Below, piece by piece: positions 7,260-54,875 of a stretch of 64,000 nt of DNA. Position numbers and translations under genes: made by a program. Source of the stretch: an uncultured bacterium. Its GTDB lineage: Bacteria; Verrucomicrobiota; Lentisphaeria; Victivallales; UBA1829. The notes beneath the pieces are model-generated. The model had not been told where the DNA came from. It did no database searches and saw only the letters and a list, made by a program, of their open reading frames with translations. Every line of letters starts with the position of its first letter. Position 1 is the stretch's first letter. The stretch covers positions 42,394-106,393 of the forward strand of contig CADCMR010000003.1 of the NCBI GenBank assembly GCA_902802585.1, given 5' to 3'.

Positions 7260-7288
7260 TTGATTCTGAACGTGGAAAATGGTATAGT
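7260..7288 (+). promoter_or_regulatory. Sigma70-type promoter for the GntR gene
   Basis: TTGATT-17 bp-TATAGT with an extended -10 TG. Confidence 0.65.
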
Positions 7289-7385
7289 ATATCATGTTCC
7301 GCGTTTTCTTATGCCACGTCGTCACCCCTTAAGTGCGGCGCGGTGTTTTTTTCTACGCAGATTTCAGACAGAGGGGTGCCAGCCA

Positions 7386-8434
7386 TGCCATGCCGTTACG
7401 CCAACGCCAAGTATATGACCATCGCGGAGCTTATCACCAGGAGGCTTCGCGCAGGGGAGTTCCAGGGAGAAGAACAATTCTACAGCCGGGACGAGCTGGC
7501 GCGTGCGTACCATATTTCTCCGGGCACGGCGCGCGCCGTGCTGCGCGTGCTGGAAGACCGGGGCGTCATCGCGTGCCGGAAGGGGAAACGGCCGATTCCG
7601 GCGGACGTCATCGCCGACCTCAATTCACCGCCGACCTGCAGACCGGTCTTTTTCCGGGATTCCGTCACCGCGGAGACGCCGGAATACGATTACCTGGCGT
7701 ACTGCATGAGGAATATCCTGATGCCATGCGGAACCAGTTTGCGCGAATACGATTCCGATTCGCCGGAATGCGGAACCTGCGCGGAGTTGTCCGCCGGGGA
7801 CGTCGCGGTCGTGTTTCCTTCGCCGTCCATGGCGAAAGCCGCGCAGAATCATCCCGCGGTCCGGCCGCACGGCGCACGGATCGAACTGATCATCGACCAG
7901 ACGGAATACAACGCGGTGTCCGTGTTCACGCGGAAAGCCGGTCTGGACTGTATGTTGTACCTGATCCGGCACGGCGTCGCCTCCGCCGTCCACGTAATGT
8001 CCAGCCATTCCGCGTTTCCCTGGTTCGGGGATGTCTGCACACCGGGCAAACTGAGGGAATACATCCCGGAATGCGAGACGTCCTCCGTCGTGTTCAACGG
8101 CGAGCTTGAGATGTTCCCGGATTTCCTGGCGGAATCCGTCCCGGCAATCGCCTCGCCGAACCATATGCCCGCCGCGATCCTGATCGACGACCCGTATCTA
8201 TCCGACTACCTTTCCGGCGAAATCCGGGTCGGCATATACTCCCCGCCGTCATGGTGCTCGTTCTTCGGCACGGCGCTGAACGAACGGTCCATGATGTTTC
8301 CGTACCTGGACCTGAAACTGAACGAACTGGCGGCGTCGCTCCTCCGGACGGCCTCGTCAAAAGCGGAGACCCCGGCGGCGGAACTGGCCTGCGACTTCCA
8401 CCTGCTCCAGTTCAGAAATCCGGGGATCGACTGA
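7386..8434 (+). CDS. GntR-family HTH regulator with a divergent C-terminal ligand-binding domain
   Basis: KYMTIAELITRRLRAGEF...SRDELARAYHISPGTARAVLRVLEDRGVIACRKGK is a GntR winged HTH. Start moved from the track's 7343 to the ATG at 7386. Confidence 0.75.
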
Positions 8435-8460
8435 ACCGGAATGCACGGAAAACCAGGATG

Positions 8461-9363
8461 TCAGCCGCGTTTCTTCGCGATGATGCGGTCCTTGAACCGG
8501 AGATCGAGGGAGCGTTCGTCCTCGTGGTTCCGGACCGTGGACTCCAGTTTGGGAAGCAGACGCCCGAAAACGTCGTCGCGGAGCTGTTCCTCGCGGACCC
8601 GGAGCGGGATCAGGATGGTGAAAGCGCCCGGATCGTTCCTGTAGAGAAGGTCGCACTGGATAAAGTCCTGGGAGATGTAGATAAGCTTCGGATGCACGTC
8701 GGTGAACTCCAGGCGCGTGAGGCGGAGGAAGTCGAGCACGGTGCGGATGGAGGAATCGGTGAGGACTTCGCCGCGCTTGAACGGCTCGGCGTCCTGCGAC
8801 ACGCGGACGGCGGACGGCTTGCAGGAAAGCAGGGGGAGCGAGCCGGAAACGTCGAAGTAGGCGGATTTGTCGAGGACGGTCGCGGAATCGTCGATGTAGA
8901 AACCCGTGCCGAGGTTCGCGACCGGGATGCGTTCATGCAGTTCGAAGATCAGCTGGTCGGGCAGAACGCGGCGGATGTCGGCGCGTTCAAGCTCGGGGAT
9001 TTCCGTGCGGAGTTTCGCAGCCATCGCGGCAAGATCGTATTCGTTCTTGCCGGAAAACATCGGGGTAACGCCGGGGCGGATGCGGAGAATCGACAGAATG
9101 CGGTCCATGCGCGCCTGGCGTTCGTCGGGGTCGGCGGGGCTCCAGTAGCCGGAGCTGCCGGCGAGGCGGACGCTGTTCACGACGAGGCGGGGGTTGTTCG
9201 GGAAGAGCATGAGGTAGGCGAGCCACAGGAGGACGCCCAGGATCACGGGAATGCACACGGCGAGGGACAGCCCGATCCAGAACTTGGTCTTTTTGGAGAG
9301 GCCCGGACGGGGAGCGGAGTTCAGATCATCAGAGACTGGCGGAGAAGGTTTCACTGGCGTCAC
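8461..9363 (-). CDS. FtsQ/DivIB-like cell division protein (single TM + POTRA)
   Basis: One TM (FWIGLSLAVCIPVILGVLLWLAYLML), POTRA-like ELERADIRRVLPDQLIFELHERIPVA, C-terminal LDLRFKDRIIAK. Probable GTG start at 9363; the track's upstream extension looks non-coding. Confidence 0.7.
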   Translation of the reverse strand: MTPVKPSPPVSDDLNSAPRPGLSKKTKFWIGLSLAVCIPVILGVLLWLAYLMLFPNNPRLVVNSVRLAGSSGYWSPADPDERQARMDRILSILRIRPGVTPMFSGKNEYDLAAMAAKLRTEIPELERADIRRVLPDQLIFELHERIPVANLGTGFYIDDSATVLDKSAYFDVSGSLPLLSCKPSAVRVSQDAEPFKRGEVLTDSSIRTVLDFLRLTRLEFTDVHPKLIYISQDFIQCDLLYRNDPGAFTILIPLRVREEQLRDDVFGRLLPKLESTVRNHEDERSLDLRFKDRIIAKKRG

Positions 9364-9856: not shown

Positions 9857-11545
9857 ATGAAAAAGACACCGGAAACCAGAAAAGACAGCGGATCGCGGAT
9901 CAGGCGTTGGGTGTCGTTCCACATGACGCGCCTGATCGACCAGTGGTCGTTCAACGCTGTGTTCTTCCTGGTATTTCTGAAGCTGCTGCAGCTGTGCAAG
10001 CTGCTTGGCGCAAAGCCGACCGAAAACGGCTGGCGGAAAGTCACCGGGATCTTCCTGAAGGGGGACATCTCCAAATTCATGCTGGGGATTTTCCGCGTGA
10101 CGCCGTATCCGTCCGGGGATCTGCCGTCCTGCATGGACGAGGCCCGGGAGCGTTTCCTTACGAGGTTCGCCGAATTTCTCCGGGCGCACGGGGAGCTTCA
10201 CTGGGCGATCATGCAGAAGACGTTCCGCATGCACCGGCGCCGCCTGACGGAAACCGACCTGCTGGAAGTGGAATTCCGGCAGGACGGCACGCTGGAAAAC
10301 GCGCGGATCGTGCTCGACCCGCGGTATCCGCCATCGGCGCTCTCCGGGAAAGATATCGACACAGTCCTTTCGCTCCTCGTGCGGACGCACAACCGCCTGA
10401 ACGGCGGAACCGATCCGACGCGCTCCCGAAAGCTGTACCGGATTGTGAAGCGGCGCGTATTGTACCTGAACGCCGCCAACCTCGCGAAACGCATGGAGGC
10501 AGTGCGGCTGCTCCGGCGCATGATGAACGCCTCCTGCGTGACGTTCCTGCCGCTGCCGGAACACGGAACCGAGGCGGAAATCCAGGCGGAACGCCTGAGG
10601 ACTCCGGACGTGACGACGTACCGCCATCCGGGCTGGGGACTGCTGAACGTCTTTGTCCGCATCCATCCCCGGCTCGGCGAGGCGGATTTGTGGATCCAGT
10701 ACCACCACGTCCCGGTGGACGGGATGGCGATGCAGGAGGTCCTGACCGAACTGAAAACGGAATGGGGCGAGGCGGGAAAGATGAGCTTCCCCGCGCCGGG
10801 AAGCCCCGCGTCCGAAGTCGAAATCCAGGAGACGCCGCACAAGGGGCTGTTCCGCGCACGGGCGTTCTTCCGGTTCGACGGTCTGCTGGAGCTGAGGCGG
10901 CGACTCAATCAGAAATACGCGGCGGAAATGCGCGGTCCGGCAACGATTGCCGGCATGATCCTCTGGGGGCTCGCGAAATCGCCCCAGCTGCACGACGCGA
11001 AGATGCTCTTCCCGGTCGACGTGGAACCGGGAACCGCCGCGGGGGGAAACGCGCCGCAGCGGTTTGAACGCGAACTGAGCCTGGTCTTCATCCGTCCCTC
11101 CGACTACATGACGCACCTTGAAAAGATGGGCGGGTTCATCCTGTTCCAGCGTGAGTTCAACCGCAGATTGAAAAAGACGCGCTACCGCTGCAGCGAGACC
11201 TATGAGATGCTCGAACTGCTCTCGATGATCCATCCGCTCTTCTACTACTACGCGAAATATCTCATGCCGAAGGAATTCCACGACGTCGTCGGCACGTTCG
11301 GGCTCTCCGTGCTGCGCCATGCGGAAGTCTTCATCGCGCCCGTGACCGACCTGCAGATACGCGGGTTCCTGGCGTTCGGGCGGATGGACATGCCGTGCGA
11401 AGGCGGCGGGACGGCGGGCTGCGTGAGCATCTGCGGCACGCGGGAACAAATCGAAGCGTATCTGGCGGCGCTGGAGCGGATATCCGGCGACTATCAGAGC
11501 TTGCTGGGCAAGCAGAAACAAATAACGGAAGGTGAAATGTCATGA
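9857..11545 (+). CDS. Putative CoA-dependent acyltransferase, HHxxxDG (condensation/CAT-like) superfamily
   Basis: IQYHHVPVDG motif plus a C-terminal GTFGLS...GFLAFGR segment resembling a CAT-fold lobe. ATG at 9857 follows GGAG; the stop overlaps the next ATG (ATGA). Confidence 0.6.
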   Translation: MKKTPETRKDSGSRIRRWVSFHMTRLIDQWSFNAVFFLVFLKLLQLCKLLGAKPTENGWRKVTGIFLKGDISKFMLGIFRVTPYPSGDLPSCMDEARERFLTRFAEFLRAHGELHWAIMQKTFRMHRRRLTETDLLEVEFRQDGTLENARIVLDPRYPPSALSGKDIDTVLSLLVRTHNRLNGGTDPTRSRKLYRIVKRRVLYLNAANLAKRMEAVRLLRRMMNASCVTFLPLPEHGTEAEIQAERLRTPDVTTYRHPGWGLLNVFVRIHPRLGEADLWIQYHHVPVDGMAMQEVLTELKTEWGEAGKMSFPAPGSPASEVEIQETPHKGLFRARAFFRFDGLLELRRRLNQKYAAEMRGPATIAGMILWGLAKSPQLHDAKMLFPVDVEPGTAAGGNAPQRFERELSLVFIRPSDYMTHLEKMGGFILFQREFNRRLKKTRYRCSETYEMLELLSMIHPLFYYYAKYLMPKEFHDVVGTFGLSVLRHAEVFIAPVTDLQIRGFLAFGRMDMPCEGGGTAGCVSICGTREQIEAYLAALERISGDYQSLLGKQKQITEGEMS

Positions 11546-35228: not shown

Positions 35229-36617
35229 CTACCAACCGAATATCTGTTCCTCTACGCTCCTCTGATGTAGCGGCGGCAGCGGATCGATCCCGCACGGAGC
35301 CTCATTTCCGCGTCCCGCCGCGTGGACTGCCAGCGCGAGCGCCCAGAACCGGTCCGAATGTCCGGATTCGTCGCGTTCGGCGTCGTAACGGACGTTCCCG
35401 GCGGCGGTCACGCTCCGCACGATTTTGTGCAGGTCGTGACGCATCACGTCATCCGCCAGAATCCGTATGCCTCGCGACTCGAACGCCGCCCGGACCGGCA
35501 TGGCGAGCGAGGCTTTCACCGGGCCCGTAAATGTCACGCTCTCCACGCGGTATTTCCCGTGGCGTTCCTGCATCTCCTCCGCCAGCATCATCCCGATCCC
35601 CGTCGCGTCGATGCAGAGGCGTTCCAGCCGGGCGTCGTCGAGGCGGCGCGCCAGGGCGTCCGCCTGCATCCGGAACGGCATGTTCTCCATGACTTCGTAT
35701 CCGCTCTGCCAAAGGATGTCTCCGATGCGCGTCAGCTCGAAATACACCCCGACGTCCTTCTTCCGTCCCACGTCGTAACCGGCGTACCGGATCGCCTTCG
35801 GGTTTCCGTTCAACGCCTTTTCCAGGTCGGAGGCGTCGTTTTCGCACGCGCCGATCATGCCGTAGTCCAGCAATGCCGCGCCCGCCTCCGCCGCCTCGAC
35901 CATGTACTGCGTCCGCCAGGCGTCTTCCGTGCGGCATTTCGCACGCATCATTTTCAGCCATTCCTCGCGGCTCAGCTCGCTCCCGGTCACAGCATTGACG
36001 CGTTCCACGAATCCTTCCTCCACGGCGTCCAGGATGCTCGTCCGGTGGACGCTCCATCCCATCGCATTCGCGCCGTGTTCCGCCTCATGTAGCATCCGGC
36101 AGAACGGCGATTCGCTGCTGCCGTCCACACTCAGCGCGGACACCATTTCCAGCTGTCCGCCCCACGTGGTGCACGGCAGTGCCATGTCGATCACCTTTCC
36201 GCTGTCCTTGTGCAGGTCCGCCTCGTCGATCAGGATGTCCCCGCCCTTCCCGGCGAACGCTTCAGGCGTGCTGGACAGGCTGATGACCCGGCTGCCGTTG
36301 CCATATTCCGCCGTATACGCCCGGATCCCGTGCAGCGGGTCGATGACCGAGGCATTCTCTCCGGCGAGACCGCGGCAGACCACGTTCGCCGCCGCCGCCC
36401 ACTTCGCGATGTAGTCCGTGATGAATTCGCGGGCGGTGAACTCGTCGCGGCTGGTCACCCACTGCACCGTCCCCGGATGCCGCAGGCACTTGTCATTCAC
36501 GCGGAAGCTCGTGGCGTACGTGATGCCGATCCGGCGCGATTTCGCGTACAGCTTCATCCGCGCATCGTCCAGGATCCAGCGCCTCTGGTACGGCAGAAAA
36601 TAATCCGTCAGCTTCAT
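35229..36617 (-). CDS. Mu gp28-like terminase large subunit
   Basis: LPYQRRW, Walker A KSRRIGIT, Walker B ILIDEA, nuclease GYDVGRKKD / IDATGIG / HSDRFWALALA. Confidence 0.92.
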   Translation of the reverse strand: MKLTDYFLPYQRRWILDDARMKLYAKSRRIGITYATSFRVNDKCLRHPGTVQWVTSRDEFTAREFITDYIAKWAAAANVVCRGLAGENASVIDPLHGIRAYTAEYGNGSRVISLSSTPEAFAGKGGDILIDEADLHKDSGKVIDMALPCTTWGGQLEMVSALSVDGSSESPFCRMLHEAEHGANAMGWSVHRTSILDAVEEGFVERVNAVTGSELSREEWLKMMRAKCRTEDAWRTQYMVEAAEAGAALLDYGMIGACENDASDLEKALNGNPKAIRYAGYDVGRKKDVGVYFELTRIGDILWQSGYEVMENMPFRMQADALARRLDDARLERLCIDATGIGMMLAEEMQERHGKYRVESVTFTGPVKASLAMPVRAAFESRGIRILADDVMRHDLHKIVRSVTAAGNVRYDAERDESGHSDRFWALALAVHAAGRGNEAPCGIDPLPPLHQRSVEEQIFGW

Positions 36618-46993: not shown

Positions 46994-49090
46994 ATGAGAT
47001 CGAAGTCCTGGAACCGTTTTCTGTCCGCATTCATGATCGTTTTTGCGCTGCTCCTGGGCGCCTGCCGGAGCACCGCCCCGGAGGAAAAAGCCGCCGCGGC
47101 AAACGATGAAACTGTCGCAATGGATGAACCCGCCAGGCCGTGGTCGACCGCGCGCCTCGTCGGCGAGCTCTCCGGACACGACCCGCTCGAAGGCTTCAAC
47201 CGGAGCATGTTCGAGGTGGACACCGTGATCATGGACTACATCGCGCGTCCGCTGGGCTGGATCTGGTCCAGCATCCTGCCGCGCCCCGTGATCCAGTGCA
47301 TCGAAAACGCCTGCCACAACCTCGCCTTCCCCGGCCGCGCGATCTCCTCGCTCGGCAGCGCCGAATGGGAGTGCGCGGGCGTCGAGACCGGACGTTTCCT
47401 GCTGAATTCCACCATCGGCATCGCCGGCCTCTTCGACCCCGCCGAATACTGGTTCCACCTCTACAAGACCGACGCCGACTTCGGGCGCATGTTCGCCACC
47501 TGGGGCATCGGTCCCGGCTGCCGCCTCATCATCCCCGGCAGCAAGCACATCAACGTCCGCGACGACATCGGCAGCATCTTCGACTATCTGCTGGACATCC
47601 GCACCTATCTGCCCTACTCCAGCTGGGCGTACATCAACAACGTCGTGGCGCTCCATCCGCAGTTCGTGAACGCGATCAAGGGGTCCGCCGACCCGTACCG
47701 CACCTATGTGATGATGTCGCTCCTGAACCGCGAACTCCAGCTCGACAAATGGTACTACGACTACGCCAAGGACGTCTACCACGACCGCCTGCCCGAGCTC
47801 CCGCCCGACCAGGGCACCACGATGCCGAAAACCCTCCGCGGTCGCCGCAAGGTCCTTGAAGGCTACCATTCGCTCGGCCCCGTCGCCGACACCCTCCGCG
47901 CGCTCTATTTCGTGCCGCAGAAGGACCACGACTGGTGGTACGCGCGCCTTTCCATCTTCAACTCCGATTTCGAGGACAAGATCCACACGCGCAAGGTCAA
48001 GGCAGGCGAAGACCCCGACCGCTCCCGCCTCAGATACGGGTTCTTCGAAGCGCCGAAGCCGAAGGATGAAAACGAAGTCCGCCCCGAAAAGCTCGCCATC
48101 GTCATCCCCGGCATCGGCAGCATCTACAACAGCCAGACCGCCCTCGCCACCGCCGAGGAGTTCTACAACGCCGGCTACAGCGTCGTCCTGCTCGACAACG
48201 GCTTCAACTGGCATTTCATGGTCGCCACCGACGGCAGGCTCCCCGGTTACACTCCGCACGAGGCCGCCCACATGCGCACCATCATCCAGCGCATCCTCGC
48301 CGACCTCCGCGAGGACGGCAAGATCAAGGAACCGCGGATCGTCCTCACCGGCTGGTCCATGGGCGCGATCGAGCTCTGCCACATCGCCGCCATGGAGGAA
48401 AAGGAAAATACCCTCGGCATCAGCCGTTATCTCCCCATCAACCCGCCCGCCGACCTCATCACCACCCTCAAGACCATCGACGGCTACGCCGCCGCGACCG
48501 ATTCCTGGACCTTTGACGACGCCGTGGAGAAGGTCTCCACCGGGGCCGGGCTCCAGTACGTCCTTACCAAAAATGTGATCCCGCCGCTCGATCCCGAAAA
48601 ACCCGAGACCGTCACGCGTCCGCCGCTCGTCCCCGACGACACCGCCAAGTTCTTCATCGCGTTCGCACTGCAGAGCTGCCTCGGCGAAGTCCTGGAGCAG
48701 ACACAGCGCGAGGGCAAGTACCCCCTCCTCGGAATCGAATCCCCCTGCACCATGTTCAACCGCGAAGACTTCTACCGCGAAATCGGCGAAGTCGGCTTCA
48801 TGGAGTACATCACGCGCTTCCTCTTCCCCCAGATGGGCAAGTCCATGGACGAACTTGACACGCTCGCCGCCGAATCCGGTCTCCGCGCCGTCGAATCCAC
48901 CCTCAAGAATAACAAGTCCGTCCGCATGATCCATTCCTGGGACGACATCCTCATCACCGACGAAGACCGCAAGTTCCTTGACGAAACCCTCGGCGACCGC
49001 ATCACCTGGTTCTCCAACGGCGGCCACTGCGGTGAATTCTACACCAAATCCTTCCGCGAAGAACTCCTTTCCCGCGCCGAAGAAGAGTAA
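46994..49090 (+). CDS. MlaA/VacJ lipoprotein fused to an alpha/beta hydrolase
   Basis: Lipobox LLGAC; MlaA motifs DPLEGFNRSMF, RFLLNSTIGIAGLFDPA, DFGRMFATWGIGPG; hydrolase motifs IPGIGS, GWSMGA, WDD, GGHCG. Confidence 0.85.
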   Translation: MRSKSWNRFLSAFMIVFALLLGACRSTAPEEKAAAANDETVAMDEPARPWSTARLVGELSGHDPLEGFNRSMFEVDTVIMDYIARPLGWIWSSILPRPVIQCIENACHNLAFPGRAISSLGSAEWECAGVETGRFLLNSTIGIAGLFDPAEYWFHLYKTDADFGRMFATWGIGPGCRLIIPGSKHINVRDDIGSIFDYLLDIRTYLPYSSWAYINNVVALHPQFVNAIKGSADPYRTYVMMSLLNRELQLDKWYYDYAKDVYHDRLPELPPDQGTTMPKTLRGRRKVLEGYHSLGPVADTLRALYFVPQKDHDWWYARLSIFNSDFEDKIHTRKVKAGEDPDRSRLRYGFFEAPKPKDENEVRPEKLAIVIPGIGSIYNSQTALATAEEFYNAGYSVVLLDNGFNWHFMVATDGRLPGYTPHEAAHMRTIIQRILADLREDGKIKEPRIVLTGWSMGAIELCHIAAMEEKENTLGISRYLPINPPADLITTLKTIDGYAAATDSWTFDDAVEKVSTGAGLQYVLTKNVIPPLDPEKPETVTRPPLVPDDTAKFFIAFALQSCLGEVLEQTQREGKYPLLGIESPCTMFNREDFYREIGEVGFMEYITRFLFPQMGKSMDELDTLAAESGLRAVESTLKNNKSVRMIHSWDDILITDEDRKFLDETLGDRITWFSNGGHCGEFYTKSFREELLSRAEEE

Positions 49091-49114: not shown

Positions 49115-49188
49115 GTGGTTGTTTCCAAAATGGAAATAACCACTTTCAAGGCATCATAGCCCCAACTGTTTCCAAAATGGAAATAGTT
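49115..49188. repeat. Two copies of the 19-bp palindrome TGTTTCCAAAATGGAAATA, 47 bp apart
   Basis: Copies at 49120-49138 and 49167-49185; each extends into its own longer inverted repeat (GTGGT/ACCAC and AAC/GTT). Confidence 0.85.
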
Positions 49189-49201: not shown

Positions 49202-49813
49202 ATGACGATGGATTGGAAACAGCAGTTCAAAGTTCATGATCTCAGCTTCCGGGAGACCATTATCATTCTCCTGGTGGTCGCGGTTTGTGAGGTTATCCTG
49301 ATGTTTATCTTCCCCTGGCGGGGGCCGGTTTGGAATGCAGTCACTCGCTGCGGGATCAACCAAAGGTCGATCTACAGAATCATGAGCAGGGTTCCCGACG
49401 GGGACGAATTCGAGCTGCCGCCCGAATGGACCGTCGCCGACCTGATCCGGGAGGCGGTCAGGAAAGACCGTCAATCGCCCCACCCCATGGAGGAACATTA
49501 TTTTATCTGCCGGAATATCAGTAAAGTACGCGAATGCGATTTTCCCTATGACCTTCGGCCCTATCTGGTGTTTCCGGTGTCCGCCTCGGTCGTGTTCGAC
49601 GAATCGCTTCAGAAGCCCGTTCCGATCCTCATGTGCTGGCCGGGCGCGCATGACGGCAAACACTGCTCGATGGTCCTCTACTCCGATGGAACAACGAAAC
49701 CCCTGACTCCGGAAGAGGCGGAAAAGCTCGTTGCCGAGTATTCGCCCGTGCCGCTCGAACTGAAACCGGAAACAACCGATGAAAGCAGTGTCCGGTCCGG
49801 CGACGGCGAGTAA
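49202..49813 (+). CDS. Pilin-like membrane protein, array paralogue 1
   Basis: TM, C..N, WTVADLIRE, YLVFP, PVPILMC.PGAH, VLYSDG, EEAEKLV. Confidence 0.8.
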   Translation: MTMDWKQQFKVHDLSFRETIIILLVVAVCEVILMFIFPWRGPVWNAVTRCGINQRSIYRIMSRVPDGDEFELPPEWTVADLIREAVRKDRQSPHPMEEHYFICRNISKVRECDFPYDLRPYLVFPVSASVVFDESLQKPVPILMCWPGAHDGKHCSMVLYSDGTTKPLTPEEAEKLVAEYSPVPLELKPETTDESSVRSGDGE

Positions 49814-49873
49814 ATCGCCGCCCGGAATCATTCGTCCAGACATGCTTTTTTTCATCTTTTTCTGTTCTTTCTA

Positions 49874-49902
49874 TTGGTTTTTCCGGCGTCCTGTGGTATA
49901 AT
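49874..49902 (+). promoter_or_regulatory. Internal sigma70 promoter of the paralogue array
   Basis: TTGGTT-17 bp-TATAAT with an extended TG. Confidence 0.65.
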
Positions 49903-49955
49903 AGTTAGGGAAATTCTATTTGACGGGCAATCGCAACAACAAGTCCGGAGGGCGA

Positions 49956-50069
49956 ATGACAACGGAAAAGAAAACGTGGAAAAAGATTTGGCACGCGCGA
50001 GTGCCGAATCTGTCATGGGCGCGTTTCCGCATCGCGTTTCGGGGTAATCCGGAGGGCATGATCCGATGA
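49956..50069 (+). CDS. 37-aa basic/aromatic small ORF coupled to paralogue 2
   Basis: GGAGGG RBS; MTTEKKTWKKIWHARVPNLSWARFRIAFRGNPEGMIR; its TGA overlaps ATG 50066. Confidence 0.45.
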   Translation: MTTEKKTWKKIWHARVPNLSWARFRIAFRGNPEGMIR

Positions 50070-50719
50070 AAACCGCGGACAAAATGGTGCGGACCGTGCC
50101 GTTCTGGAAGTCGTGTTCGACGGTCCTTTGGATCTTCCTGATCCTGTGCATCGCGTCCACGGTCCTGCATAATTGGGACCATAAGACGTGGCAGAATACA
50201 ACGGGGCTGTTCCAGAAATGCACGGACAACCTCAAATGTATTTTCTGGACCGCCTGCGAGGCGGCGAAACGCTACGACGGAACCGGGGAGGAAACGCGGG
50301 AGCTCCCGCCCGGAATGACGTTTTACGACCTGATCCGGGAGCCGGACCCGGCGGCATTGTTCGGCTCGGAGGAAGATCGGTTAGTCTGTCCGAAAGACGG
50401 ACAGGCGTACCTGGTGTTTCCGGTCTCCGCCGCCGATGTCCTCAATTACTTCCAATACGAGGCAATGCTCCGCGACGGAGCGAAGCCGGAACGCGAGCTC
50501 CGGGCGTTCCCGCTCGCCATGTGCCCCTGTACCCATTCCAATCTCGGGGAAAGAAACAATCCGCAATACGTTCTGATCCTGTATTCGGACGGAACAATCA
50601 AGCCCAAAACACCCGAGGAAGCCGAAGCATTCGCCGCGGAACAGTCGCTCCGCCTGCTCGGTCCCTCAAAACCAAAGGACAGATGGAAATGGCTGAAAGA
50701 CCTGACAAGGATCCGGTAA
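50066..50719 (+). CDS. Pilin-like membrane protein, array paralogue 2
   Basis: TM, CTDNL, YDLIRE, CPKDGQAYLVFP, MCPCTH, ILYSDG, EEAE. Confidence 0.8.
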   Translation: MKTADKMVRTVPFWKSCSTVLWIFLILCIASTVLHNWDHKTWQNTTGLFQKCTDNLKCIFWTACEAAKRYDGTGEETRELPPGMTFYDLIREPDPAALFGSEEDRLVCPKDGQAYLVFPVSAADVLNYFQYEAMLRDGAKPERELRAFPLAMCPCTHSNLGERNNPQYVLILYSDGTIKPKTPEEAEAFAAEQSLRLLGPSKPKDRWKWLKDLTRIR

Positions 50720-51336
50720 GCCCGGCGAAACAAGGAGAAAACGGCGCCGTCCGCGTGTATCATCTGATATGGATCCTTGTGATCATGGCGGTGTTCTTCG
50801 TGCTGATGGGGGTCCTTCTGCCGCCATTGGGTCAGGCGAAACCCGGCCCCGTTGCCACAGACTGCCGAATCAATCTCTTTATCGGGTGGAAGGAATTGAG
50901 GTATGATCTGCCGGAGCAGTACGAGGACAATGCCGGAAATCCGCCGCCGGAATGGACCATCCCGGACCTGATCCGCGCGGTGAACAAGTCGTGGAATAGA
51001 GACCGCCCGCTTTTCTCGTCCTGCCCCGTGTTCTTCCTCCCGGAAGACAAAGGCGGGCGGAAGCAGGGATATCTGGTGTTCCCCGAGCCCGCTTCGGTCG
51101 TGTTCGACGATTCGCTCCGGCCGCCCGTCCCGATCGTCATGGACCTGCCCGGCACGCACGGCGATTTCTACGGCACGAACGTCCTTTTCTCCGACGGGAC
51201 CGTGATCTCGCTGACCGCGGAAGAGGCGGAAAAGCTCGTCGCGGAAAAGTCGCCCGTGCCGATCGAGGAGGTCTACCGGAACGACGAAGAGGCGGAGAAT
51301 CTTGTTTCCGAAGATCAATCCGAGGAGGGGAAATAA
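50683..51336 (+). CDS. Pilin-like membrane protein, array paralogue 3
   Basis: Start at ATG 50683 (AAGGA RBS); TM, CRINL, WTIPDLIR, YLVFP, PGTHGDFYGTNVLFSDG, EEAEKLV. Confidence 0.8.
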   Translation: MEMAERPDKDPVSPAKQGENGAVRVYHLIWILVIMAVFFVLMGVLLPPLGQAKPGPVATDCRINLFIGWKELRYDLPEQYEDNAGNPPPEWTIPDLIRAVNKSWNRDRPLFSSCPVFFLPEDKGGRKQGYLVFPEPASVVFDDSLRPPVPIVMDLPGTHGDFYGTNVLFSDGTVISLTAEEAEKLVAEKSPVPIEEVYRNDEEAENLVSEDQSEEGK

Positions 51337-51338
51337 GT

Positions 51339-51908
51339 ATGGATTGGAAAAAACGGTTCGACATCCACAAAGAAGCAGGCTGTGGCTTGATAATAGGCGT
51401 CATCTTCCTGATCGCGGTGCTCGTATTTTTTCTTTTCATCCCAATTTGCTCAAAGAGTGCGGCCCTTTCCGCCAAATGTATCGTCAATCTGAACTTTATC
51501 CCCATATACATGTATCATACGGCGGAAGAAATGGAACCGGAAGACCTGGCGAAAATGACGGTCGCCGATCTGCTTCAGGAGTCGGTCCGCAAATGGAAGA
51601 TGAAGGAAAATGAGCTCGTCTGCCCCATTGACGGTCGGTCGTATGATATCTTTCCTCTGTCCGCCGCCGAGTTTGTCCGGCGTTTCGAATCCGGGGATCA
51701 TCCGGTTCCGGTCGTCATGTGTCGCGGCACGCATGTGAAAGAAGTAAGGGGATGCTTCGGCTGGTACAAAACATACTACGGAACGCCGGTCGTTCATACG
51801 GACAGGCGCAGAGAATTGAGCCGGGAAGAGGTGGAGAAACTTGTTTCGGAGTATTCACCCGCACCGCTCAAGCTTGATTTTGAATCACAACCGGAGGAGG
51901 GCAAATGA
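51339..51908 (+). CDS. Pilin-like membrane protein, array paralogue 4
   Basis: TM, CIVNL, TVADLLQE, CPIDGRSYDIFP, PVPVVMCRGTH, VHTDR, EEVEKLV. Confidence 0.8.
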   Translation: MDWKKRFDIHKEAGCGLIIGVIFLIAVLVFFLFIPICSKSAALSAKCIVNLNFIPIYMYHTAEEMEPEDLAKMTVADLLQESVRKWKMKENELVCPIDGRSYDIFPLSAAEFVRRFESGDHPVPVVMCRGTHVKEVRGCFGWYKTYYGTPVVHTDRRRELSREEVEKLVSEYSPAPLKLDFESQPEEGK

Positions 51909-52510
51909 AATTCAGCTGGAACAAACCGATCAAGGAACGTCAGCTCCGCCCGTGGGAAGTGTTCCTTGTCCTCCTGATCGGCATCCCGATCGCGCTGATC
52001 ATCTCCGGAGCGCCGCAGAAGTTCCTCTTCGAGACGCCTGACGCAAAAGACGGAGTCAGGGCCGCAGAGTGCATGTACAACCTGAACCAGCTGGGAAAAC
52101 GACTGTACGATGCCACACACGAAGAGGGATTCGACCCCGATGCGGGCTGGACGGTCCCCGATCTGATCCGGGAGAGCGTACACGGCGGAAAACTGGATGA
52201 AAAGATTCTTCACTGCCCGGCAACCGGCGCGCCCTATTCCGTCTTTTCGATCCCCGCGGCAGTCTGCGCGCAACACGGCGAGCTTGTCCCGGCAAACCCG
52301 GTCCCGGTCGCCATGTGCCGTCCCGACGCGCACCGGAGAAGAAAAGGGATTTTCTACTTCCCAAAAGAATATGGCGCAATGGTCCTGTATTCCGACGGGC
52401 AGGTCAAGCGCGTGAGTCAGGAAGAGGCGGAGAAACTTCTTTCCAGGCTGTCGCAGCAAATCGTTACTGCGGAATCCGCACTCGAAACAAAGGAGAAAAC
52501 GGATGAATAA
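51905..52510 (+). CDS. Pilin-like membrane protein, array paralogue 5
   Basis: TM, AAECMYNLNQLG, WTVPDLIRE, CPATGAPY, PVPVAMCRPDAH, VLYSDG. Confidence 0.8.
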   Translation: MKFSWNKPIKERQLRPWEVFLVLLIGIPIALIISGAPQKFLFETPDAKDGVRAAECMYNLNQLGKRLYDATHEEGFDPDAGWTVPDLIRESVHGGKLDEKILHCPATGAPYSVFSIPAAVCAQHGELVPANPVPVAMCRPDAHRRRKGIFYFPKEYGAMVLYSDGQVKRVSQEEAEKLLSRLSQQIVTAESALETKEKTDE

Positions 52511-53141
52511 ATATGCACGCGTCTGTGTGGCGGTCATCGCGCTGGCGGGACTCGTCTGGTTCATCGGGCACGCCGCGTATGAACACCGCGCCATGGTGAC
52601 GTACATGTACACCTGTGATTGCATGTGCCAGCTCGACATGATCGACGAGGCAATGTTCTATCTCGTCACCGGCGACTGCATCGAGGATTCCTACCGGTCC
52701 CGGTTCGAAAAGAACGATCAGGACCCGCCTTTCAAAATCCGCCCGGAGCATACGGTCTCCGATCTGATCCGGGAGGTGCTGCGACGCGGTCTGCTGGAGG
52801 AAAAAGACGTCTGTGACAGGTACGGAGGCCGCCAGCCGTATCTGGTGTTCCCGGGACCCGCGTCCTGGCTGTGGCATGATTATCTCGTGAAAAAGGGGCT
52901 GCGCGAACCGTCGGAAGAGGTCGTGCCGGAAAAAGTCCCGGTCCTCATGGATCGTCCGGGCGCCCACATGGAAAGTGCGAAACTGATGATGATCTACCGG
53001 ATTTTCACGTTGAAAAAAGGACTGTCGTCCGCTCTCTCGTCGCGGGTGCTGTATTCGGACGGAAGCATCGGAGTCGTCAGCCGCGAGGAAGCGGAAAGAC
53101 TCGTTCAGGAACACGCTCCGAAACCGATAGAGTTTCCATAA
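52503..53141 (+). CDS. Pilin-like membrane protein, array paralogue 6
   Basis: TM, CMCQL, TVSDLIRE, PYLVFP, VPVLMDRPGAH, VLYSDG, EEAERLV. Confidence 0.8.
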   Translation: MNKYARVCVAVIALAGLVWFIGHAAYEHRAMVTYMYTCDCMCQLDMIDEAMFYLVTGDCIEDSYRSRFEKNDQDPPFKIRPEHTVSDLIREVLRRGLLEEKDVCDRYGGRQPYLVFPGPASWLWHDYLVKKGLREPSEEVVPEKVPVLMDRPGAHMESAKLMMIYRIFTLKKGLSSALSSRVLYSDGSIGVVSREEAERLVQEHAPKPIEFP

Positions 53142-53172: not shown

Positions 53173-53284
53173 CCGTTATCCGTCAAAAATGACGGCATGT
53201 CCGTCATTTATAAGCACTGCAACAGCACATTGTTGACAGAATGACGGACAAAACTGACGGAATGACCGTCATTTGTTTCCGTCA
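53173..53284. repeat. Cluster of TGACGG/CCGTCA hexamers in both orientations
   Basis: Exact copies start at 53180, 53190, 53201, 53242, 53255, 53266 and 53279, around a central CAACA-N6-TGTTG palindrome. Confidence 0.8.
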
Positions 53285-54798: not shown

Positions 54799-54875
54799 CG
54801 GGGTATAGCTCAGTCTGGTAGAGCGCGTGCTTTGGGAGCATGAGGTCGCAGGTTCGAGTCCTGTTGCCCCGACCA
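54799..54875 (+). tRNA. tRNA-Pro(TGG)
   Basis: CGGGGTA/TGCCCCG acceptor stem, AGCTCAGTCTGGTAGAGC D-arm, anticodon loop TTTGGGA, GGTTCGAGTCC T-arm, encoded CCA. Confidence 0.97.

Follow-up and report, generated by a model that had tools for sequence, protein, structure and literature searches.

A recombining tandem array of diverged, miniaturised DUF1559 / H-X9-DG relatives at a fixed chromosomal site in rumen Victivallales

This study concerns a tandem array of six genes in a 64-kb stretch of DNA from an uncultured rumen bacterium of the Victivallales (contig CADCMR010000003.1 of assembly GCA_902802585.1, positions 42,394 to 106,393); the whole stretch is called the window below, and positions are counted from its first letter unless another locus is named. 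The interval 49202-53141 holds six paralogous open reading frames (ORFs) on the + strand, c1 to c6, encoding proteins of 189-217 amino acids. Judged by profile comparison, the six proteins are a diverged and shortened branch of the DUF1559 / H-X9-DG superfamily that lies outside every curated threshold. The family is an unnamed, clade-restricted and miniaturised relative of DUF1559 / H-X9-DG, itself known but uncharacterised. On balance, we favour the view that it is a DUF1559-derived, signal-anchored tandem family, reshuffled by recombination between paralogs, whose members likely serve as periplasmic binding or envelope-protection modules.

The array has the appearance of an operon, the junctions consisting of start/stop overlaps or 2-nt gaps. 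Copy 1 (49208-49813) encodes 201 amino acids, or 203 if the alternative in-frame ATG at 49202 is used. It is followed, after a spacer of 252 nt, by copy 2 (50066-50719; 217 amino acids), which copy 3 (50689-51336; 215 amino acids) overlaps by 31 nt. Then come copy 4 (51339-51908; 189 amino acids), copy 5 (51905-52510; 201 amino acids), the start of which overlaps the c4 stop codon (ATGA), and copy 6 (52503-53141; 212 amino acids), with an 8-nt overlap with c5. All six are complete ORFs with a start codon and a membrane helix. The six-gene order has been recovered on at least four independently assembled contigs and is therefore not an assembly artefact. Since the longest exact match between two different copies is only 22 nt, repeat collapse is not an issue either.

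The six proteins align over their full length, with 30-40% identity, and have 15 invariant positions: C48, T75, D78, L79, C101, Y119, F122, A126, P139, M142, H148, D160, E169, E170 and E172 (numbering of the 201-residue c1 that starts at 49208; two higher in the 203-residue form). They cover the T..DL of (W)TV.DLIRE, the Y..F of PYLVFP, the P..M of PVP..M and the EE.E of EEAEKLV. A previous, sequence-only reading of this stretch had described six paralogs with these motifs and with spacers of 11, 17, 11, 22, 20 and 30 residues between a conserved His and DG in c1 to c6, and the alignment reproduces this description exactly. None of the spacers is nine residues long. The His is invariant in all six copies, and DG is kept in five of them, c4 having DR instead. 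The same reading called the His-DG loop length-hypervariable, which does not hold: the spacer is fixed for each paralog type, being 10-11 residues in c1, mostly 17 in c2, 29-30 in c6 and constant in c5. The His-DG insert is a type-defining difference between old paralog types and not a hypervariable site.

Searches of Pfam, NCBIfam, PADLOC and PHROGs gave no match for any of the six proteins, also when the thresholds were relaxed, in keeping with the earlier statement that they apparently belong to no named family. A word-indexed search with a six-sequence profile returned 394 proteins of 170-235 amino acids, none with a Pfam domain and one of them named from a Lentisphaeria metagenome-assembled genome (MAG). 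One copy-5 ortholog is called 'prepilin-type processing-associated H-X9-DG protein' in its JGI record. In an exhaustive HMMER search, a 23-sequence family profile was compared with 1.84 billion cluster representatives. No more than 80 proteins were retrieved, and about 40 of these clearly belong to the family. Proteins of 180-290 amino acids make up the tail of the matches, with whole-library E-values from 3e-7 to 1e-3. Seven of ten tail proteins tested (P0172, P0178, P0180, P0185, P0186, P0191 and P0196; whole-library E 8e-6 to 9e-4) exceed the gathering score of PF07596, the Pfam model of DUF1559 (also SBP_bac_10), and several tail proteins additionally carry N_methyl / TIGR02532 prepilin signals and TIGR04294, the H-X9-DG model. 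The weaker matches of the family profile are thus bona fide DUF1559, prepilin and H-X9-DG proteins.

Alignment of 17 such mini-DUF1559 proteins reveals that the skeleton of the window family is common to both, namely the Cys in C.SNLKQIG, the Cys in (V/I)xCP, a Tyr, a Pro, the His and NVLYxDG. When the family is compared with these 17 proteins, hhalign gives a probability of 99.6% over 144 columns, a score inflated by the fact that the set was picked from matches of the family profile. With the membrane helix and the helix that follows it (alpha1) removed on both sides, the probability is still 99.0%, indicating that the signal does not come from hydrophobic-helix composition. Independent support for the DUF1559 link is provided by the whole-library E-values and by the Pfam calls on those matches. 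Profile search, Pfam calls on the relatives and hhalign together bear out the relationship to DUF1559 / H-X9-DG proteins, proposed earlier with the proviso that the cleavage motif is absent or degenerate. Against PDB sequences, the family profile gave chance-level matches only, with no GspG and no pilin among them.

In Planctomycetes, DUF1559 forms a very large set of paralogs with no known function (PMC10632474, PMC2754498). Planctopirus limnophila has 68 DUF1559 paralogs, two of which are essential (PMC10632474), and in Rhodopirellula baltica DUF1559 expression responds to stress (PMC10632474, PMC2754498). The DUF1559 proteins of Planctomycetes, Verrucomicrobia and Lentisphaerae and the window family are both large paralogous expansions of unknown function, and their elements follow in the same order. 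An N-terminal hydrophobic helix leads into a ..C.(S/N)NL(KQIG).. helix, (V/I)xCP and an aromatic SYxY/PYLVF strand, and then come PxPI..(D/C)xPxxH, NVL(Y/F)xDG and a short EE.E helix. In contrast to DUF1559, for which the PF07596 model has 268 positions, the window proteins are about 200 amino acids long and remain below the Pfam gathering score. They also lack a prepilin cleavage/methylation motif and have extra inserts between His and DG. Whereas DUF1559 occurs as tens of dispersed copies, the window family is restricted to one narrow clade and arranged there as a single tandem array of conserved synteny.

TIGR04294 shares with the window proteins a conserved His, a hydrophobic strand, an Asp-Gly pair and a beta strand (VLYSDGtv in the window, NVLFaDGHV in the model). 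It differs in its spacing of 9, against 11-30 in the window, and in the prepilin N-terminus, absent from the window family, the members of which score at most 12.3 against a cut-off of 19 bits. In the giant proteins P0156, P0158, P0161 and P0162 (930-1239 amino acids), the family profile finds four PVP..H..VLYxDG matches each, and TIGR04294 gives 49.6 bits for P0156. The H-X9-DG module is therefore also found repeated within large proteins. The relatives that link the family to DUF1559 also match TIGR01710, the model of the major pseudopilin GspG, weakly and over the N-terminal helix only.

Each of the six proteins has a single strongly hydrophobic 19-residue segment (Kyte-Doolittle 2.2-3.3), always near the N-terminus. 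No copy matches N_methyl (PF07963) or TIGR02532 at E<=1, no canonical prepilin motif of the [GAS]-F-T-L-I-E type occurs in any frame of the window, and Gly(-1) and Glu(+5) are missing from all six copies. The N-terminus of c3 is the most pilin-like (..VLMGVLLPPLGQAKPG..C.INL beside the canonical ..ILAALLLPALQRARE..C.GNL), which argues that the membrane helix is a homolog of pilin alpha1. Since the prepilin-peptidase site has been lost, this remnant of alpha1 most likely acts as an uncleaved signal anchor. Several relatives found by the profile search bear the same domain on unrelated anchors, such as a zinc ribbon with CD225 or a DUF2059, so that there is precedent for non-pilin tethering of the domain. 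The positive-inside rule favours an N-in orientation for c2, c5 and c6. Homology points to an N-in/C-out orientation and to a disulfide between the two conserved Cys residues, and the domain probably faces the periplasm of a diderm cell, as judged from homology and the conserved Cys pair.

AlphaFold2 gave confident models for c1 (pLDDT 84, pTM 0.72) and c6 (pLDDT 88, pTM 0.82). In the c6 model, residues 3-56 form a continuous N-terminal helix of 54 residues, behind which lies a small beta sheet; the 30-residue His-DG insert is modelled as two short helices. The long continuous helix (about 54 residues) with a small sheet might be pilin-like. Unlike GspG and the type IV pilins, the window copies are without Gly(-1)/Glu(+5), neither profile nor Foldseek search connects them with such proteins in the PDB, and polymerisation is unsupported.

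That the array recombines is seen by comparing the window with strain L001. The two are collinear at about 90% DNA identity save for two deletion/fusion events. In one of them, c1 of the window tracks L001 gene 1 as far as ..GAGTATTCGCCCGTGCCG (EYSPVP) and continues with the tail of L001 gene 3 and its downstream spacer. With L001 as the reference, 945 nt comprising the gene 1 tail, a PDC fragment (see below) and the gene 3 body are absent from the window, and the junction is an identity of 15 nt. In the other, the last L001 gene (gene 6) corresponds to the body of window c4 up to the EEAEKLV.E block, followed by the tail of c6 and the hairpin-bearing sequence 3' of it. L001 therefore lacks the tail of c4, the whole of c5 and the body of c6. 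Both events fall at the conserved EEAEKLV..SPVP coding block. Further chimeras are found in the databases. P0124 begins like c3 and continues with an insert and tail of the c7 type (c7 being a type found at other loci), and P0143 carries an additional in-frame C-terminal module. Misassembly was considered as a source of the chimeras and rejected, given the 15-nt junction identity and the 22-nt limit on exact runs between copies.

Similarity among the six paralogs of the window is likewise a patchwork, as had been noticed before: MDWK..F..H and EYSP.PL are common to c1 and c4, and an EEGK tail to c3 and c4. The nearest partner switches along the gene. For c1, at the nucleotide level, it is c4 and c2 in the TV.DLIRE segment, and c3 from PYLVFP to SPVP (78% and 70% identity). 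A tract shared by c1 (49562-49632) and c3 (51070-51140) had been described as near-identical. The shared tract is real; near-identity is an overstatement, the two sequences agreeing at 59 of 71 nt (83%) and at 75% over 197 nt. The tract is specific to this pair, since 102 of 151 polymorphic sites agree and none of 2000 column permutations reaches the score.

In 85 proteins of the copy-1 type, 56 combinations of four variable segments are seen, and every pair of segments shows four-gamete quartets, a result drawn from short metagenome contigs to which chimeric assemblies could contribute. The pairwise homoplasy index (PHI) test, applied to 11 copy-1 alleles from long contigs or MAGs, gives an observed value of 0.382 against 0.464 +/- 0.007 (z about -12; 0 of 1000 permutations). 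Exchange is general in the clade and strongest in the array. The chimeric junctions in L001, the c1/c3 tract and the PHI test agree with the previous description of the array as a recombining one, and its content, which varies between strains, has turned out not to be fixed.

A scan of one genome per species detects the family in 11 GTDB species-representative genomes, all of them rumen Victivallales/Lentisphaeria, a number that is a lower bound and biased to copy-1 carriers since copy-1-type sequences were used as queries. Six of the 11 genomes are titled as MAGs of Victivallales, Lentisphaeria or Lentisphaerae, and five as RUG assemblies of an 'uncultured bacterium'. At every locus examined, a purF-like amidotransferase gene and an mlaA-hydrolase gene lie directly upstream of the array, the proteins being 91-97% and 76-92% identical, respectively, to those of the window. 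The flank on the downstream side of the array is variable. The number of copies per locus ranges from two to seven, and the paralog types differ between loci. The order c1-c2-c3-c4-c5-c6 of the window is replaced by c1-c7-c2-c3-c4/6 in L001 and by c1-c7-c6 in L004; locus L008 has seven copies, and L017-L019 begin with c7. The types c1-c7 persist as orthologs across species at 72-94% identity.

In strains other than that of the window, the array is interleaved with genes of the defence-island kind. RhuM (PADLOC PDC-S05) is found at the array in L008 and L015 (7955-8998 in L015), in both cases immediately upstream of copy 1, with 2 nt from the RhuM stop to the c1 start. DUF1016/YhcG (PDC-S02) lies inside the L006 array (10349-11407), a truncated 90-residue PDC-S13/S04 fragment inside the arrays of L001 (8644-8916) and L006, and a PIN-antitoxin pair inside the L015 array (10281-10912). 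The array site thus behaves as a hotspot of the defence-island type. No toxin, Rhs, PAAR, contact-dependent inhibition (CDI), type VI secretion system (T6SS) or bacteriocin gene is adjacent in any locus, no pilus or type II secretion system (T2SS) machinery genes lie within about 10 kb, and no invertase, reverse transcriptase or recombinase was seen near the array.

Searches of phage and plasmid collections by tblastn gave no match to the family. One 98.5-kb IMG/VR contig (L022, IMGVR_UViG_3300037455_001397) carries two tandem members (7267-8603) between Sel1-repeat and ankyrin-repeat genes, without purF-like or mlaA; the closer member is 67% identical to the c7 type. This gives the family a second genomic setting. 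A viral origin of the family is not claimed, the neighbours in the visible 13 kb of L022 having no recognisable phage functions.

Selection on the array genes has been compared with that on their neighbours. For orthologous pairs of array genes, the gene-wide ratio of nonsynonymous to synonymous substitution rates (dN/dS) is 0.23-0.81, and below 1 throughout, against 0.07-0.11 for the purF-like gene and 0.19-0.33 for mlaA. These values indicate that the array genes are functional, under constraint that is weaker or more heterogeneous than that on the neighbours. The highest values (0.55-0.81) belong to c4. Orthologs of c4 in L001 and P0131 retain DG where the window copy has DR, and the latter may be decaying. 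Variation among copy-1 alleles clusters at residues 31-50 (post-helix), 91-110 (central loop) and 161-170 (post-DG) and in the acidic tail. Nearly fixed are the MDWKQQFKVH peptide (predicted to be cytoplasmic), TV.DLIRE, PYLVFP..VVFD, PVPILMC.PGAH and EEAEKLV. The density of informative sites in c1 is 27%, two to three times that of mlaA or purF-like.

These observations can be brought together in the following way. The array encodes small, bitopic membrane proteins that form a tandem family specific to this lineage; their predicted extracytoplasmic domain of about 150 amino acids is a miniaturised and highly diverged DUF1559 / H-X9-DG (pseudopilin-related) domain. Turnover of the array at the fixed site proceeds by homologous recombination between paralogs at DNA encoding conserved motifs, above all the EEAEKLV..SPVP block, generating chimeric genes and causing copies to be lost or gained; insertion of defence-island-type genes into the array is a second route. 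The six genes are presumably co-transcribed and translationally coupled. Each product would be a periplasmic scaffold tethered to the inner membrane and stabilised by a disulfide between the conserved Cys pair, and the His...Asp-Gly pair might bind a metal or have a structural part. Specificity for a partner may reside in the variable segments: the linker that follows the membrane helix, the central loop, the insert between His and DG, and the acidic tail. A role as a periplasmic binding or envelope-protection repertoire appears most likely and is preferred to that of polymerising pilins or surface antigens. An envelope-protection role is suggested by the genes that accompany the locus, and the genomic context would also allow an immunity-like role or one in envelope defence. 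In a more specific version, which we regard as unlikely, the array is a strain-variable envelope-protection repertoire of tethered pseudopilin-derived modules, each neutralising or excluding a different phage component or periplasm-acting toxin; new specificities would then arise by shuffling of segments between paralogs at the conserved recombination blocks.

It is quite improbable, in our estimate, that the six proteins are cleaved prepilin-peptidase substrates, that is, minor pilins or pseudopilins of a type IV pilus or T2SS that bring about pilus-tip or antigenic/phage-receptor variation. The remote homology to prepilin-type DUF1559 proteins would agree with this, as would the long helix of the c6 model, the strongly conserved and leader-like N-terminal peptide MDWKQQFKVHDLS of c1 and c4, and an S-F in c1 at a position comparable to G-F. 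Against it speak the want of any N_methyl/TIGR02532 match in the six copies and of a prepilin motif in the window, the absence of Gly(-1) and Glu(+5) from all six copies, the lack of pilus or T2SS genes within about 10 kb, and the relatives that carry the domain on non-pilin membrane anchors such as CD225/zinc-ribbon; moreover, every copy is complete, and none is a silent cassette. The last point bears also on the variable surface, antigenic or phage-receptor role put forward in the sequence-only reading. The Neisseria pilE/pilS system brings about antigenic variation by gene conversion. The window array resembles it in having multiple pilin-related copies, conserved blocks beside variable blocks, and recombination at the conserved blocks. 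Unlike pilE/pilS, its copies are full-length, translationally coupled and apparently co-expressed, with no single expression locus and no truncated silent cassettes; the domain is probably periplasmic, and variation is documented between strains or species and not within a clone. A probably periplasmic domain, complete and apparently co-expressed copies and the absence of a silent-cassette architecture make surface antigenic variation unlikely.

We give little credence to the proposal that the array supplies immunity (antidote) proteins to counter toxins acting in the periplasm, whether these come from competitors or from the cell itself, with paralogs being accumulated and shuffled in the manner of orphan-immunity islands. 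The acquired interbacterial defence clusters of Bacteroidales are such orphan-immunity-type arrays of gut bacteria. Like defence islands and orphan-immunity arrays, the locus has strain-variable content at a fixed site, with PDC-S05, PDC-S02, the PDC-S13/S04 fragment and toxin-antitoxin genes interleaved. Small membrane-tethered proteins with a probably periplasmic domain, encoded by tandem divergent paralogs of strain-variable content with dN/dS above that of the neighbours, would suit such a role, as would the gathering of toxin-antitoxin and defence-candidate genes at the locus and a habitat in a dense gut-type community. Unlike those arrays, the locus holds paralogs of a single family, without PADLOC match and without an associated recombinase or toxin. 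Nor is there similarity to known immunity families, and no toxin, Rhs, PAAR, CDI, T6SS or bacteriocin gene lies next to any of the loci. The upstream mlaA-hydrolase gene was considered as the toxin for which the array would provide immunity. This idea has been dropped, since the product is no polymorphic toxin but a lipoprotein that is conserved and subject to purifying selection (dN/dS 0.19-0.33). An equally doubtful alternative holds that the array is a redundant, drifting paralog cluster at a recombination/insertion hotspot, its mosaicism neutral, with no diversifying selection and no repertoire function. Gene-wide dN/dS below 1 everywhere, loop lengths that are constant within a paralog type, recombination of the flanks as well, the absence of DG in c4 together with its highest dN/dS (consistent with decay), and a c1-c2 spacer that may be a relic copy are all in line with drift. 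This has to be set against the retention of at least two copies in all 11 species, the maintenance of the c1-c7 types as orthologs at 72-94% identity, intact reading frames in all copies examined, and the informative-site density of c1, which exceeds that of mlaA and purF-like two- to threefold and is concentrated in specific segments.

Several points weigh against the preferred reading of a DUF1559-derived, signal-anchored and recombining family with a likely envelope role. The DUF1559 model itself (PF07596; gathering score 23.3 bits) matches none of the six proteins at E<=1, and TIGR04294 matches none of them either. Among orthologs of the six, the only TIGR04294 match, to the copy-5 ortholog P0009, is below threshold, its 12.3 bits (against the 19-bit cut-off) being the best score with a curated model; to this is added the inflation of the hhalign score mentioned above. 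Foldseek comparison of the c1 and c6 models with the PDB gave no pilin and no meaningful neighbour (best E 1.5 and 0.67), the top matches being proteasome subunits with template modelling (TM) scores of about 0.15. The positive-inside rule is ambiguous or neutral for c1, c3 and c4, and both the topology and the uncleaved state of the helix are predictions from sequence. As for recombination, the possible contribution of chimeric assemblies to the four-gamete result has been noted, and the flanks recombine too (z -5.2 for mlaA and -2.2 for purF-like), so the array differs from them in the strength of the signal, not in its presence. Finally, proximity to the defence candidates may reflect nothing more than a common insertion hotspot.

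The gene just upstream of the array (46994-49090, + strand) encodes a lipoprotein (lipobox LLGAC) with an MlaA domain (9.1e-37) and an alpha/beta-hydrolase-like C-terminal half (GWSMG serine motif; weak match to Abhydrolase_6), and lies outside the array family. Such an MlaA-hydrolase fusion is unusual, and it is kept upstream of every array. Other neighbours in the window include the purF-like gene, nspC, a serpin gene, SBP_bac_5 and similar genes. A tRNA-Pro(TGG) gene (54799-54875, + strand) lies just past nspC, 1.7 kb downstream of the array; nspC and tRNA-Pro follow the array only in the window and in L015.

A 19-nt element, TGTTTCCAAAATGGAAATA, with the palindromic core TTTCCA-AAA-TGGAAA occurs twice on the + strand of the spacer between mlaA and c1 (49120-49138 and 49167-49185), 47 nt apart. 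It is found nowhere else in the window, where 0.12 matches would be expected by chance. Its position is conserved in L001, L002, L006, L009 and L013. The RhuM loci have a single element upstream of RhuM, and L015 has a second one inside the RhuM ORF. It could be an operator/promoter element or an insertion target. At the other end of the array, two hairpins, AAATGACGGnATGnCCGTCATTT, lie between the convergent c6 and nspC genes (53184-53274). The second is terminator-like on both strands, and the hairpin region is homologous to the sequence 3' of the last L001 array gene. The c1-c2 spacer (49814-50065, + strand) holds a called ORF of 37 amino acids (49957-50069; MTTEKK...), the first residues of which are the same as in some c7-type paralogs. 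In another frame, the spacer bears a faint likeness to the family core (LVFPASCGIIVREILFDG against LVFPVSASVVFDESL; E about 6-8, not significant). It may be a relic of a lost copy. Farther away, about 13 kb upstream of the array, the ORF at 35229-36617 (- strand) encodes a terminase large-subunit RNaseH-like domain (Terminase_6C, 9.8e-12). The G+C content dips at 26-28 kb of the window. The region of the Terminase_6C ORF may be a prophage remnant.

In Planctomycetes, Verrucomicrobia and Lentisphaerae, the DUF1559 / H-X9-DG proteins rank with the largest paralogous expansions, and they have no known function (PMC10632474, PMC2754498). The array offers a compact model of the DUF1559 problem, with a minimal domain of about 150 amino acids, no pilin-processing signal and a single syntenic site. 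Natural chimeras and copy-number variants across rumen strains reveal which segments are interchangeable and which form the scaffold. If the association with defence genes is functional, it would indicate an envelope-protection role for the whole superfamily, and such a role, if true, would be the first functional handle on the DUF1559 / H-X9-DG superfamily of bacteria of the Planctomycetes-Verrucomicrobia-Chlamydiae group. If it is not functional, the locus is still a clean case of tandem paralogs reshuffled via a short conserved coding block. The array is of value above all as a model of the DUF1559 superfamily that is minimal and has been shuffled by nature.

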